Part shown: positions 55,462-64,000 of the stretch, in pieces
How the letters are laid out: each line of letters opens with the position of its first letter
Position numbering within the stretch: position 1 is the stretch's first letter
Source: a candidate division FCPU426 bacterium
GTDB lineage: Bacteria; Oederibacteriota; JAAXVQ01; JAUVAV01
Assembly (NCBI GenBank): GCA_040756875.1
Contig: JBFLYH010000001.1
Coordinates: 320,001 to 384,000 of the forward strand
Direction: 5' to 3'
Length of the DNA: 64,000 nucleotides
Made by a program: the position numbers and the translations under genes
The notes under the pieces: model-generated
Seen by the model: the letters and a program-made list of their open reading frames with translations, nothing else
Told to the model about the DNA's origin: nothing
Databases searched by the model: none

Positions 55462-58400
55462 ATGCTGTTAAGCCTTTGGCGCCAACCCAGCATCGCGTTA
55501 TGGGCCAAGAGCCTGTCGCTCGCTTTGTGCCTGGTTTTCCTCGCTCCGCTGCTGACCTGGGCCTTTGATCCGGCAACCTATCCCGCCAAACCCGGCTTAT
55601 TCCAATTCAACGGGCAAACACTGGCCATTCCTGAGAAGTGGGGCACAGTGCAAACCAGTTTTGCCGGCGGCGACCGGCTGGTCATCCACCTCCAGGACCT
55701 GCACTGCAATTACGAAGTCCAGATGAATATCGCCCGGGTCATCCGTTTGCTGGCCCAGCGCCACGAGCTGCACTTTGTGGCCGTGGAAGGCACGCACCTG
55801 CCGCTTAATACCACCAAGCTGCGGACATTTCCATTGCCCGAGGTGCGGGAGGAAGTGGCGGATTATTTCGTGCGGCAGGGGCGCCTGTCCGGAGCGGAAT
55901 ACTACGCAGCCACGGCCGACCGGCCGGTCCGCCTGGAAGGCGTCGAGACCCAATCCTTGTACGACCGCAACCGCAAGACCGTGGATTTCATCCTGCGCCA
56001 GGAAGGGCAGGGTTATGCTTACGACCTGCGGGATTTGTTCGCCGCCCTCAAACCGAAGCTTTATCATCCGGCGCTGCTGCGGTTCGACCGGCACAGCGTT
56101 GCGTTCCAGCGCGGCCAGGCCAGCGCCCGGCAGCACGCCCGCTGGCTGGCGCAGGAGGCGGGCCGCCGGGACGTGAGCCTGGAACCGTTCGGCCAGCTGC
56201 GCGCCTATCTGCGCCAGGATCCTGCGGCCGATGCGGACGGCTTGTTCCAGGACCTGGACCGGCTGGAAGCCATCCTGCGCGACGGCATGTATCTCAACGA
56301 GGCTGAACGGGAGCTGGACGCCCAACTGGGGCGGCTGGCCGTGGTCGAACGCATGCTCGGCCTTTCCGCGAGCCCGGAGGATGTGGCCCGTTTCCGGTCC
56401 GAGCGGGAGGCGTTCCGCGTGCCGGCGTTCATCGGCTGGCTGCGCAGCCACGACCCCGAGGCCGAGCTGGAAATCGACCCGGAACTTTACGTCCTGGACG
56501 GCTACCTGAACGCGGCCGAGGATTTCTACGCGGTGGCGGACCAGCGCAGCGAGCACCTCGCGGACAATCTGCTCGCGCGCATGGAAGCGCAGCGCCAGCC
56601 GATCGCCGTGCTGGTGACCGGCGGGTTCCACACACCGCACCTGCTGGCCGCGCTCAAGGCCCGCGGCGTGTCCTATCTCGCGGTCAAACCCCGCCTGACC
56701 CAGCCTGACCTGGTGAACCCCTATTTCTCCCTGCTGAAGAACCAGGCCTCGCCCCTGGACAAACTGATGGCCAAGGATCAGACCTTTTTCTCGCTCGAAC
56801 CGTACCTGCCCAAGGGCGACCCGGACCGCATTCCCGACGAAGCCGCGGATTTGAACGAGCGGGAGCGCACCTTCGCCCGCCTGCTGGATTTGTTTTTCAA
56901 AGTCAAGACCGTCACTCACTTTTACTTCCAAAATAAAATCGGCCGGGAACTGGAGCGGCTGGTCGCGGGCACCCTCGAGGCCTATCCGGCCCAAAGCCGC
57001 GGCGTGCGCGTGCGGCCGGAGGAGATCACGGTTTATCCCCGGAACGTCCTGGGGTTCCACGTCACCTCGCCCAACCAGGAAGACCTGCTGGCTGTGGCCT
57101 GGCAATCCCGGCGGCCGACGGCGCTCGCGGCCGCGGATGCCCTGCAGATCGCCGAGTTCAAGGGCGACAAAGTCGCGGTCATCGGCCCGGAGAACCAGGC
57201 CGTGGTGCAGACGAAACTCAAAACCATGCCGGCTGTGAGCCTGGCTGACCTGGATCTCGGACGGCTCATGCGGCTGGTCCTGGTCTGGCGCTGGGTGCCG
57301 CGCCTACTGGCCCGTTTGGGCCGGATGTCAGACCGGCTGGCCAAAGCCCGGGACGCAATCCGGGCGTTCAACGTCCGGCAGGCCCTGGCCCCGGGCAAGG
57401 ACCGGTCTTTTAATCTCTGGCAGGTCCTGGCAGGCGCGGCGGCAACTTTCAGTTTGACGCTCACATCTTTTTATATATTCCCCCTGCAGGATCTCACCCT
57501 GGCGCAATGGGGCATGGCTTTATTTCTGCCCGTGATTGCAGGCTGGTTGACCCTGAGTCTGGGCTTCATCTTCGGCGTGGCGGCGATAACGCGGCTGCTG
57601 CCGTCCGGACGGGGTGCCGTCGACTGGAAAAAAGCCGAACAGGCCAGGCTCTATTTGGAAGGGCAAGGCGCGGATTGGGTGGAATTTGACGGAACGCCCT
57701 TGCGCTTCGGTGAATTCGCCCGCACCCGATTCCACGCGACCACCCGCAGGAGCGTGACCCTCGCCCCCTGGCTGGTGGCCCAATCGGAATCGATCTGGCA
57801 CCAAAGGCTCCAGGCCCTGTTGCTGCCCATCATCTTGGCGCATGAAGCGCGGCGGTTGCAAGGGTGGTCGGCCGTAAAAATCTTTGCCTCTCTGTTGGGG
57901 CCGCACTGGGGGCTCATCCGCCAAGTGAACCGGGCTCAAAACGATTTGCTGCCCAGGTTCTTGACCGCCCCCTTGACGCCGGAAGCGGACGGTGTTTACC
58001 GCGCGTTTCTAACCGAATGGACTCTCACTCCCGCCCAACAAGAACAAGTGCACTATCTGCTGGCCCGCCTGCAGCACCGTGGCGGCCTCGCGGCAGTCGA
58101 ACAGGCGCACACTTATGTGAAGGAATACTTCAAACCCTCCCCGGCCGCCCTGGTGCCCCTTTTAAGCGAGATCGAGGAACTGACGCGCCTGGCGGGCAAA
58201 AGCGCGCCTGCTTTTTTTGAGAAAGTTCTATCCATGTGGGGATACAAGCAGGCGTACCGCGAACCCCTGCCGCGGGAACAACTTCCCGTTTATCTGCGCC
58301 AGTTGACCAGCCTGTGCCGCCTCGGCCGGCCGGAGGATTCGGAACCGTGGAGCGGCGAAGTCGCATCCATGGGGGCGTGGATGAGCAGCCGCGGCGCCCC

Positions 58401-64000: not shown

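Follow-up and report, generated by a model that had tools for sequence, protein, structure and literature searches.

A 37.5-kb gene of a groundwater bacterium encoding a 12,493-aa protein with a predicted TIKI-like head and five SidJ-like modules

Giant bacterial genes have so far come mainly from the Omnitrophota, for which giant multi-enzyme membrane proteins have been described (West-Roberts et al. 2023, 10.1101/2023.11.21.568195; Nielsen & Lui 2026, 10.64898/2026.06.07.730766) and N-terminal regions have been reported without identifiable domains. According to the accessible text of these papers, the proteins exceed 10,000 aa, contain numerous TM segments and consist of largely unannotatable sequence, with a methyltransferase domain among the recognizable ones and an N-terminal region that has no Pfam domain. 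'Most' of them carry a SecA DEAD domain; HEAT, glycosyltransferase and dockerin domains also occur, and the genes lie near those for type II secretion or pili. SidJ-like and TIKI-like domains go unmentioned in the text of 10.1101/2023.11.21.568195 and 10.64898/2026.06.07.730766, supplements aside.

SidJ and SdjA of Legionella pneumophila are kinase-fold protein glutamylases that depend on calmodulin, and SidJ is a secreted single-domain effector. As given in the accessible parts of PMC6858067 and 10.1101/2021.04.13.439722, the adenylation site of SidJ comprises R352, K367, E381, N534 and D542 and its 'migrated' glutamylation pocket H492, R500, Y506 and R522; K367, D542 and H492 are essential, and mutation of D545 has little effect. 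According to Osinski et al., SidJ homologues outside Legionella are without the C-terminal calmodulin-binding IQ motif, and the accessible part of their text reports no SidE substrates in the non-Legionella organisms carrying such homologues (10.1101/2021.04.13.439722).

The TIKI superfamily (Tiki, TraB/PrgY, EreA-C, Bcr135/136, ChaN, HopBA1, RRSP and PMT-C1) provides a further point of comparison, as do the MARTX toxins, giant proteins whose set of effector domains can be exchanged.

The window analysed here, a stretch of 64,000 nt, comes from an uncultured groundwater bacterium. It holds the 5' part of a gene whose product shares with the Omnitrophota giants, as far as their published text is accessible, a length above 10,000 aa, numerous TM segments, largely unannotatable sequence, a recognizable methyltransferase domain and an N-terminal region without a Pfam domain. 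In contrast to those giants, a search of 24 Pfam tiles (E <= 0.01) and 14 segments (E <= 0.5) gave no SecA DEAD domain, and Pfam/NCBIfam scans detected no HEAT, glycosyltransferase or dockerin domain, nor any adhesin, lectin or glycoside-hydrolase domain. The first-pass annotation had likened the gene to the giants of Omnitrophota and Elusimicrobiota, which holds in part: distant relatives of its N-terminal domain (N-domain), 23-33 % identical, head long ORFs in many Omnitrophota-titled MAGs, whereas the lineage appears to be another one, the closest N-domain MAGs being titled Ca. Firestonebacteria, Goldiibacteriota or 'uncultured bacterium', and two hallmarks of the Omnitrophota proteins are missing. 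Judged from sequence, the tie to the Omnitrophota giants appears to be distant N-domain homology only, and none of the results pointed to predation. With MARTX toxins the gene has in common a very long ORF, conserved ends and an internal enzyme set that varies between close relatives; it differs from them in that no RTX repeats, cysteine protease domain or type I secretion genes were seen, and in that its TIKI-like domain forms the conserved head instead of belonging to the cargo.

Extent and coding signal of the gene

Within the window, frame +1 contains no stop codon from GTG 55381 or ATG 55462 through 63999. Followed through the whole genome, the frame closes at a stop codon at C1:412941-412943, equivalent to window coordinate 92943 and 28.9 kb beyond the window end. 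This bears out the first-pass annotation, which had read frame 1 as open from 55462 to 64000, had proposed a single giant gene many kb longer and had suggested extending the contig past 64000 in search of the stop. Counted from the ATG, the CDS measures 37,482 nt and encodes 12,493 aa; the window contains its 5' 23 %, that is the first 2,846 codons of 12,493 (55462..64000, plus strand), and there are no Ns within the ORF.

Several lines of evidence indicate that the frame is coding. GC content at codon positions 1/2/3 is 0.70/0.46/0.81 and stays the same in all 3-kb tiles of the ORF, with a GC3 of 0.81 for the giant gene against 0.75-0.91 for the neighbouring genes. Compared with the gene of a sister species (G001), six alignable segments gave dN/dS values of 0.18-0.47 at dS 0.70-1.41, the N-domain core being at 0.18 and the C-terminal subdomain of the head at 0.34. 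The codon-position signal and dN/dS below 1 speak against a non-coding frame kept open by high GC.

The continuity of the sequence was likewise supported. A 44,769-nt Logan contig from run X1, with a depth of ~56, matches the first 20 kb of the gene with 0 mismatches and 0 gaps; because X1 is probably the source sample, this contig represents another assembler on the same data rather than independent data. The genome of G001, which was assembled separately, contains a 12,004-aa ORF at the equivalent locus. We rejected misassembly or collapsed repeats, as the internal modules are only 30-50 % identical, depth is flat and the G001 ORF is equally long there. We also considered a 'joint' 988->5640 as a possible deletion variant and rejected it: the contig has a depth of 11.9 and one side of the joint covers 20 letters, and we attribute the match to a paralog or to a different organism. 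The locus thus contains one genuine 37.5-kb gene with a product of 12,493 aa.

The gene is flanked by amt, an NtrC-like gene, glnA and glnE on one side and by carA, carB, gltB and gltD on the other. These neighbours are nitrogen-assimilation genes, and no type II secretion or pilus genes lie beside the giant gene, in which the locus again differs from the setting given in the accessible text on the Omnitrophota giants. A search 3' of the stop codon found no terminator-like site.

Head, SidJ-like modules and the rest of the chain

Hydropathy, alignment, models and domain searches together support the layout proposed in the first-pass annotation, namely a signal or TM segment, a conserved N-domain, a TM block and then strings of enzyme-like domains, the last of which turned out to be tandem modules of SidJ-like pseudokinase fold. 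A hydrophobic helix, either signal peptide or anchor, opens the chain at aa 13-35 (55498..55566, plus strand; hydropathy 2.08, modelled as helix 13-34). It is preceded by two K/R and zero D/E and ends in WAF(D/E), a motif conserved across the family in 16 aligned sequences. Next comes the N-domain core at aa 45-460 (55594..56841, plus strand), followed by an alpha/beta subdomain that forms the C-terminal part of the head at aa 461-595 (56842..57246, plus strand), in which conservation is lower than in the core.

Structure prediction for the head (pLDDT 85.3, pTM 0.79) points to a TIKI/ChaN/erythromycin-esterase-like fold for the core. The best 5 Foldseek matches were erythromycin-esterase-family chains (prob 0.94-0.98, E >= 2.7e-3), and VIA-align gave Z scores of 9.8 for ChaN (191 aligned), 9.3 for EreC, 9.3 for HopBA1, 9.2 for 2QGM, 8.2 for 2RAD, 7.0 for PMT and 6.5 for RRSP, so that structures of the TIKI superfamily (ChaN, EreC, Bcr135/136, HopBA1, PMT-C1 and RRSP) were returned by two aligners independently. 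Sequence profiles gave no confirmation: a PDB profile search with the head gave 0 matches, and among the Pfam clan families ChaN, Erythro_esteras and TraB there was no significant head match, the only one being PF04187 in 2/16 members at E 0.087. We consider the predicted TIKI-like fold match moderate in strength, and describe the head (aa 1-595) as a hydrophobic leader plus a domain of predicted TIKI-superfamily fold.

The head shares with the superfamily the parallel-sheet alpha/beta core and a signature, (acid)xH...E...R...H, whose residues follow one another as they do in Bcr135 and RRSP and are spaced almost identically. Its residues D79, H81, E109, R362 and H390 are invariant in 16/16 sequences and sit, in the model, at strand ends of the parallel sheet. 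The H81/E109 spacing is 28, as it is for H85/E113 of Bcr135 and H3902/E3930 of RRSP, and the R362/H390 spacing is 28 compared with 29 for R4001/H4030 of RRSP (PMC6254334, accessible text). In these terms the 2His/2Glu motif plus basic residue of TIKI proteins is matched in the head with the first Glu replaced by Asp, a residue correspondence that we infer from spacing and strand ends rather than from residue-level structural alignment. The head departs from the superfamily in a helical insertion of ~200 aa (residues ~164-376 of the model) that splits the sheet halves, and in always being, in the 150 matches listed, an N-terminal fusion on very long proteins.

Behind the head lie a highly basic segment at aa 596-654 (13 K/R, 5 D/E) and then the TM block (together 57247..57600, plus strand), for which hydropathy indicates a marginal helix at ~655-677 and a strong one at 686-712; by hydropathy only, ~9 TM clusters are distributed along the whole 12,493-aa chain. 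The following region, aa 714-1188 (57601..59025, plus strand), is unassigned, with no Pfam or NCBIfam match and no usable match in the ESM Atlas.

Five diverged tandem modules between aa 1189 and 5563 are homologous to the kinase-like core of Legionella SidJ. Module 1 spans aa 1189-1747 (59026..60702, plus strand), and module 2, which NF033874 matches, spans aa 2095-2668 (61744..63465, plus strand). They are separated by a linker (aa 1748-2094; 60703..61743, plus strand) to which a relaxed Pfam scan assigned no family, and the linker leading toward module 3 begins at 63466 and runs to the window end (63466..64000, plus strand). Modules 3-5 lie past the window at aa 2973-3535, 3791-4357 and 4996-5563, and linkers between modules range from 255 to 638 aa.

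The homology was evident in structure and profile searches alike. All 15 Foldseek matches of the module at E <= 1e-3 were SidJ (15/15; best 1.1e-13, identity 14-17 %), and VIA-align against SidJ 265-762 gave Z 24.9 with an rmsd of 3.2 A over 423 residues, compared with Z 15.1 for the runner-up, vaccinia E2, and values <= 9 for ordinary kinases. A module profile run against the PDB found SidJ at E 1.9e-15, and NF033874 matched copies 2-5 with a best E of 2.3e-11. Curated cut-offs were not reached (43.3 bits vs 300 for NF033874, 20.4 vs 400 for NF033873), and because these scores fall far below the NCBIfam cut-offs we regard the modules as distant homologues of SidJ and not as equivalog members. 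A word-index homology search with module 3 returned no match among proteins of 309-986 aa or 987-2815 aa, which is weak evidence. The modules are predicted to have the kinase-like fold of SidJ with its insertion in the catalytic loop, the 'migrated' nucleotide pocket.

Modules 2-5 retain equivalents of all nine pocket residues of SidJ (R352, K367, E381, H492, R500, Y506, R522, N534 and D542). In module 1 three of them are replaced (R500->S, R522->Q, N534->G), and the equivalents of K367, H492 and D542 are still present. Across 10/10 module copies, which are 27-41 % pairwise identical to the reference copy, the equivalents of K367, D542, H492, R352 and E381 are retained; that of D545, the second metal-binding Asp, is not kept in the SidJ-like modules. 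The structural alignment stops at residue 762 of the 873 of SidJ, short of the C-terminal calmodulin-binding part. The modules thus share fold and, in modules 2-5, pocket with SidJ, and differ from it in forming five tandem copies embedded in the 12,493-aa chain of a membrane protein from an environmental bacterium; SidJ needs calmodulin, for which no counterpart is known for the giant protein. A recent foreign origin of the array was considered and rejected, its GC3 of 0.81 being equal to that of head, tail and neighbours.

Past the modules, close to the C-terminus, a CheR-like methyltransferase domain (PF01739) was assigned at aa ~11521-11712, a modest match at 34.4 bits against a gathering score of 27 (E 2e-8); Pfam tiles over this region gave no match to the all-alpha N-terminal domain of CheR. 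About three quarters of the giant protein (~9,000 aa) have no assignable family. When 14 unassigned segments were scanned against Pfam at a relaxed E <= 0.5, only sub-threshold noise came back (MarR_2 at 26.3 bits vs 27, YrhC and DUF7917), a PDB sequence search gave no match for aa 5001-10000 or aa 10001-12493, and the ESM Atlas gave no usable match for aa 7565-8266.

Family, cargo exchange and proposed function

The head defines a family that has expanded in this lineage, with different cargo behind the head in different paralogs. Counting the paralogs, as the first-pass annotation had suggested, gave N-domain heads at 10 giant loci in the source genome, amounting to at least 184 kb. As these loci fill at least 5.7 % of the genome (3.2 Mb), the giant family has to be of importance for how this groundwater lineage lives. 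In a comparison set of 99 species genomes of the phylum, the family is limited to the order of the source genome, apart from a match in 1/84 genomes outside it (E 5e-5); each of the 14 genomes searched from that order has 7-31 genes headed by the N-domain. Among public sequences the N-domain matches 9,480 cluster representatives at E <= 1e-3, and it is N-terminal in 150/150 matches listed. A confidently folded N-domain with an enzyme-like signature therefore marks thousands of giants and offers a handle for finding, counting and classifying them, even in fragmented assemblies.

The source genome and G001 represent two species within one genus, and their giant genes are orthologous by position, with a common head, tail and locus and different cargo. 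They have the same neighbours, six flanking proteins compared being 84-96 % identical, and glnE lies directly 5' of the closest heads in G003, G004 and G011 as well. The two giants themselves can be aligned only at aa 1-595 and ~9473-12479. That of G001 contains an HATPase_c domain and two esterase domains and no SidJ-like modules, and its counterpart of the CheR-like domain scores 21 bits, under the PF01739 cut-off. Cargo may be swapped blockwise through recombination, with head, tail and locus left unchanged; what points to block exchange is missing alignment, and neither breakpoints nor donors were identified. Orthologs that share head, tail and locus and have another 8,900-aa interior make giant-gene evolution directly testable.

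The explanation that we favour is that the single 37.5-kb gene probably gives rise to a membrane-tethered 12,493-aa protein carrying many enzyme domains, with its cargo facing the cytoplasm. ATP- and SAM-dependent cargo would lie on that side, and the protein would act as a membrane-anchored array of protein-modifying enzymes. Going by their conserved residues, the SidJ-like modules may adenylate side-chain carboxylates of target proteins and then ligate an amino acid to them; carboxylate methylation may be the role of the CheR-like domain, and the TIKI-like head would be an active hydrolase (peptidase or esterase) with a substrate at the membrane or in the giant chain itself. Such an 'enzyme array' covers only part of the protein, because ~9,000 aa are without assignment. 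Some features count against this explanation: the leader and two TM helices would put the SidJ-like array in the ATP-free periplasm, the highly basic segment 596-654 is poorly compatible with a periplasmic head, the first acid of the head signature is Asp, and module 1 has lost three pocket residues.

An unlikely alternative, in our estimate, is a self-processed polyprotein, in which a TIKI-like endopeptidase head cuts the precursor, or is itself cut off, and frees enzymes, the SidJ-like units among them, so that one ORF would serve delivery and stoichiometry rather than encode a working 1.3-MDa protein. The presence of the endopeptidases RRSP and Tiki in the TIKI superfamily (PMC6254334, accessible text), the invariance of catalytic-type residues in the head and the long linkers that separate the modules are consistent with this, but neither cleavage sites nor conserved motifs in the linkers were identified, the membrane may separate head from cargo, and the superfamily also has esterases and a haem-binding protein, so that peptidase activity is not implied. 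The need of SidJ-like and CheR-like domains for ATP and SAM argues for a cytoplasmic site, and with it against a surface weapon or adhesin for predation or episymbiosis, mostly extracellular and acting on another cell, as proposed for the Omnitrophota giants. We hold this to be quite improbable even though the leader resembles a signal peptide, the N-domain is distantly common to long ORFs of Omnitrophota MAGs, the cargo shows the hypervariability of conflict systems, and SidJ and RRSP are, in the accessible literature, effectors acting on the proteins of other cells: none of the adhesin, lectin, dockerin, glycoside-hydrolase and SecA DEAD domains was found in the scans, the neighbouring genes serve nitrogen assimilation and not secretion, and a 3.2-Mb genome with glnA, gltBD and carAB at the locus is unlike that of a reduced symbiont.

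The third alternative is a non-catalytic scaffold, in which SidJ-like and TIKI-like pseudo-enzymes serve structure or binding and the giant organises the membrane or envelope. It would fit the degeneration of module 1, the ~three quarters of the chain in which no enzyme family is recognizable, and the second-best structural match, vaccinia E2, which is not known to be an enzyme. It is nevertheless very improbable, given that no copy deviates at the equivalents of K367, H492 and D542 despite 27-41 % identity, that the nine pocket residues are complete in modules 2-5 and that all 16 head sequences share the five signature residues. What also speaks for it is that the TIKI superfamily has non-hydrolytic members in PMT-C1 and ChaN (PMC6254334, accessible text).

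Returning to the membrane-anchored enzyme array, studies of the SidJ-like domain have until now been limited to a Legionella effector. An array of five such domains in tandem, with catalytic residues intact in modules 2-5, would, as far as sequence can indicate, move kinase-fold amino-acid ligation beyond Legionella effectors, and the modules would be calmodulin-independent candidates for biochemistry. It is conceivable, and in our judgement rather improbable, that the TIKI-like head and TM block constitute the fixed 'chassis' of an unrecognised, very large class of giants (~9,500 cluster representatives, in this lineage and Omnitrophota) with an interior of enzyme cassettes exchanged blockwise among paralogs and species, a head that acts as chain-processing peptidase, and SidJ-like modules that are active calmodulin-independent glutamylases or AMPylases with diversified targets. 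If true, this would be the first use of SidJ chemistry outside Legionella, possibly in conflict between cells.

Start signals and the opposite strand

Opposite the SidJ-like modules lies an antisense 'shadow' ORF of 1020 aa (59572..62634, minus strand; ORF listing), the largest of those that the first-pass annotation had pointed out. We do not regard it as a gene because coding signal and homology belong to the plus frame. No RNA runs containing the stretch were listed. Upstream of the giant gene, a GGAG ribosome-binding site (55454..55457, plus strand) is read directly 4 nt 5' of ATG 55462, in line with the RBS noted in the first-pass annotation. The promoter-like TTGCGA-17-TATACT (55362..55390, plus strand), with TG ahead of the -10 hexamer and 9/12 matches, is present exactly as annotated, but sites of this type occur at chance frequency (1 found vs 1.0 expected from shuffles). 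Its -10 block sits inside a stretch that is conserved with the upstream region of the G001 gene.

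A 37-kb gene and the support for its continuity

As the first-pass annotation had proposed, frame +1 has no stop codon between the ATG at 55462 and the final complete codon of the window (C1:320001-384000 of the source genome); it is also open from a GTG at 55381. In the source genome (3.22 Mb, 7 contigs, 100 % completeness) the frame reaches its stop at C1:412941-412943. Counted from the ATG, the gene comprises 12,493 codons (37,482 nt), 23 % of which lie within the window, and it contains no Ns. GC at codon positions 1, 2 and 3 was 0.70, 0.46 and 0.81, identical in every 3-kb tile, and its GC3 equals that of neighbouring housekeeping genes (range 0.75-0.91). 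A ribosome-binding site (GGAG) precedes the ATG at 55462 by 4 nt, and the promoter-like TTGCGA-17-TATACT annotated in the first pass is present at 55362-55390, but such sites are not in excess of chance (1 found, 1.0 expected). The -10 block of this site falls inside a stretch conserved with a sister species of the same genus (G001), and the spacer around it has diverged. The antisense ORF of 1020 aa also exists and is regarded as a shadow of the coding frame, not as a gene.

The first 20 kb of the gene matched a 44,769-nt Logan contig of metagenome run X1 with no mismatches, no gaps and flat depth; as X1, a groundwater metagenome, is probably the source sample, this represents a different assembler rather than different data. 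Collapse or expansion of repeats is not a concern, the internal repeats being mutually only 30-50 % identical. The separately assembled G001 carries a 12,004-aa ORF between the same neighbours, in the shared order NtrC-like, glnA, glnE, giant, carA, carB, gltB; comparison of six flanking proteins gave identities of 84-96 %. All six alignable segments of the giant had dN/dS below 1 at dS 0.70-1.41 (0.18 in the head core, 0.33-0.47 in the five others). No RNA run was listed as containing this stretch.

The head and its family

With residues numbered from the ATG, the protein opens with a hydrophobic helix (aa 13-35) that follows two basic residues and may serve either as a signal peptide or as an anchor; it ends in a WAF(D/E) motif conserved across the family, where positions -1 and -3 are small residues. 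In the N-domain that follows (aa ~45-595), an alignment of 16 sequences (9 paralogs from the same genome and 7 from relatives) showed 37 invariant columns, including Q78-D79-L80-H81-C82, E109-G110, R362 and G387-G388-x-H390. The AlphaFold model of this domain is confident (pLDDT 85.3, pTM 0.79) and places H81, E109 and H390 each after a beta-strand. The best five Foldseek matches in the PDB were erythromycin-esterase-family chains (probability 0.94-0.98, E >= 2.7e-3), and an independent structural aligner ranked ChaN (Z 9.8), EreC (9.3), HopBA1 (9.3) and Bcr136/135 (9.2/8.2) highest, with PMT-C1 (7.0) and RRSP (6.5) lower. In the parts of PMC6254334 cited here, exactly these structures are grouped as the TIKI superfamily, whose signature combines a 2His/2Glu motif with a conserved basic residue. 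The 28 residues from H81 to E109 equal the distances H85-E113 in Bcr135 and H3902-E3930 in RRSP; R362 and H390 are 28 residues apart, compared with 29 for R4001-H4030 of RRSP, and D79-x-H81 parallels E3900-x-H3902 of RRSP. As sequence-only methods (the head profile against PDB sequences, and Pfam) gave no confirmation, the assignment rests on the modelled fold plus the signature, from which the head likely belongs to the TIKI fold.

Paralogs sharing the N-domain proved numerous, the head (aa 1-595) occurring at 10 loci in the source genome. Eight of these are ORFs of 12,493, 12,403, 10,037, 8,793, 6,130, 2,611, 2,236 and 1,223 aa and two are cut by contig ends; together they account for no less than 5.7 % of the genome (184 kb). 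Fragments of giant ORFs make up most or all of the four small contigs C4-C7: an open frame spans the whole of C4 (6,812 aa) and of C6 (4,323 aa), the latter beginning inside an N-domain; C7 has the start of a head whose frame leaves the contig, and a frame of 4,394 aa is present on C5. Breaks in the assembly thus fall within genes of this kind, which makes the number of family members a lower bound. Two head-to-tail pairs of head-bearing genes, with gaps of only ~120-180 nt, lie at C2:97664-52439 (-; 12,403 aa then 2,611 aa) and C3:415126-389901 (-; 6,130 aa then 2,236 aa). Other giant frames lack an N-domain match and may form a second family: three in a row at C2:1078294-1134622 (+; 6,963, 6,133 and at least 4,835 aa, the third cut by the contig end), C1:1030323-1007257 (-; 7,689 aa) and C3:108479-94818 (-; 4,554 aa).

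Each of the 14 other genomes searched from the same order contains the head (7-31 matches per genome), and the remaining 84 genomes available for the phylum gave one marginal match (E 5e-5). A scan of species genomes confirmed at least 538 loci, the closest of them in records titled Ca. Firestonebacteria, Goldiibacteriota or 'uncultured bacterium', and many at 23-33 % identity are titled Omnitrophota. In 68 of the 80 loci kept, no stop codon interrupted the frame behind the head before the fetched DNA ended. From 1.84 billion cluster representatives, the head profile retrieved 9,480 proteins at E <= 1e-3 (5,842 at E <= 1e-30), and among the matches listed the domain was N-terminal in 150 of 150, in proteins of 408-7,768 aa. 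'Firestonebacteria' appeared in no title or abstract among the literature matches listed.

SidJ-like modules and a putative enzyme array

Behind the head lie a very basic segment (aa 596-654; 13 K/R, 5 D/E), a marginal hydrophobic helix (aa ~655-677) and a strong one (aa 686-712). Residues 714-1188 had no family match in Pfam or NCBIfam and no usable ESM Atlas match. Five tandem modules of ~565 aa follow (aa 1189-1747, 2095-2668, 2973-3535, 3791-4357 and 4996-5563), the first two inside the window. Modules 2-5 matched the NCBIfam 'SidJ-related pseudokinase' model below its cut-off (best E 2.3e-11, 43 bits vs 300). A confident model built from 10 copies (pLDDT 86.9, pTM 0.90) gave, in Foldseek, 15 matches at E <= 1e-3, all of them structures of SidJ, the Legionella protein glutamylase with a kinase fold (best 1.1e-13, TM ~0.6), ordinary kinases appearing only from E 0.04 on. 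VIA-align superposed it on SidJ 265-762 at Z 24.9 (rmsd 3.2 A, 423 residues), with vaccinia E2 second (Z 15.1) and kinases at 9 or below, and the module profile found SidJ among PDB sequences at E 1.9e-15.

In the profile alignment, invariant module residues fall on SidJ R352, K367, E381, H492, R500, Y506, R522, N534 and D542. [quoted passage not shown] Equivalents of R352, K367, E381, H492 and D542 are kept in 10/10 aligned copies and that of D545 in none of the ten; modules 2-5 keep all nine pocket residues, and in module 1 the positions of R500, R522 and N534 are occupied by S, Q and G.

Beyond the modules, TM clusters occur at aa ~5640-5707, 7131-7175, 7374-7503, 8451-8548, 9546-9651, 10065-10083 and 10585-10627, a second repeated module at aa 7565-8266 and 8609-9330, and a CheR-type SAM-binding domain at aa ~11521-11712 (Pfam, 34.4 bits vs cut-off 27). 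About four tandem units of ~114 aa (aa 10124-10566; L003:15370-16698, beyond the window) lie between two TM clusters; they are 42-53 % identical among themselves and conserved in G001 at 65-69 %, and a relaxed Pfam scan assigned them no family, with a sub-threshold match to DUF7917 only. Roughly three-quarters of the chain had no family in Pfam, NCBIfam, PDB and ESM Atlas searches over the various segments.

The evidence best supports reading the giant as an array of protein-modifying enzymes tethered to the membrane. In this array, side-chain carboxylates would be adenylated by the SidJ-like modules and then joined to an amino acid, the CheR-like domain would be a carboxylate methyltransferase, and the TIKI-like head would act as a hydrolase at the membrane. 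One rival is a non-catalytic scaffold, to be set beside the retention of the SidJ pocket residues in modules 2-5 and their partial replacement in module 1. Another is an extracellular device for predation or adhesion; the SidJ-like and CheR-like activities would both depend on cytoplasmic cofactors. Topology is the weak point of the array reading, because it is ambiguous how many TM helices separate the head from the array. The third rival is a self-processed polyprotein, in which the successive modules would be separated from one chain. Omnitrophota are known to encode giant multi-enzyme membrane proteins (West-Roberts et al., 10.1101/2023.11.21.568195), in which, according to the sections cited, N-terminal regions 'generally lack identifiable domains' save C39 or S8 peptidases. 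SidJ homologs outside Legionella are known and uncharacterised (PMC6858067, 10.1101/2021.04.13.439722, in part). Our literature searches found no link of SidJ-like or TIKI-like domains with giant proteins; SidJ was not mentioned among the matches listed for Omnitrophota, Omnitrophica, Elusimicrobia or groundwater, nor either domain in the available text of two giant-protein preprints, whose supplements may include relevant domain tables.

Proposed mosaic evolution of the giant gene

The G001 gene aligns with the giant mainly over aa 1-595 (45-79 % identity) and ~9473-12479 (49-74 %), and also over ~300 aa (4395-4704) and a short weak segment (8404-8555). Since, at dS ~0.75, substitutions by themselves cannot erase homology over 8,900 aa and leave the flanks 50-80 % identical, we infer from these alignments that the interior was replaced in blocks. 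Three queries found no SidJ-like module in G001; stretches of its gene that lack a counterpart in the giant instead encode a HATPase_c domain and two alpha/beta-hydrolase esterase domains. A TM-containing segment present once in the giant (aa ~9473-9730) occurs about five times in the G001 gene (G001:C3:28203-64217 (-), L101-L103). The head paralogs of the source genome contain no SidJ-like module and share only two short segments with the giant outside the head. Giants from three further genera do carry the module (G004, 42 %; G005, 33 %; G007, 29 % identity), and tail modules recur in two genomes (G003, G011). Among the 7 loci of the closest heads that were examined, 4 (G001, G003, G004, G011) have glnE immediately upstream; it was not in the ~1.5-kb flank of the other three, one of which starts at a contig end. 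A shared locus and head with differing cargo point to an old locus and head and a fluid cargo.

Near the nitrogen-assimilation genes of the window, two ORFs, at 45931-47445 (+; 504 aa) and 41215-42402 (-; 395 aa), had no Pfam match. The glnE-like ORF at 51414-55259 (+), which begins with TTG, encodes 1,281 aa; the best match to Pfam GlnE covers residues 873-1115, and a second GlnE stretch was also counted.
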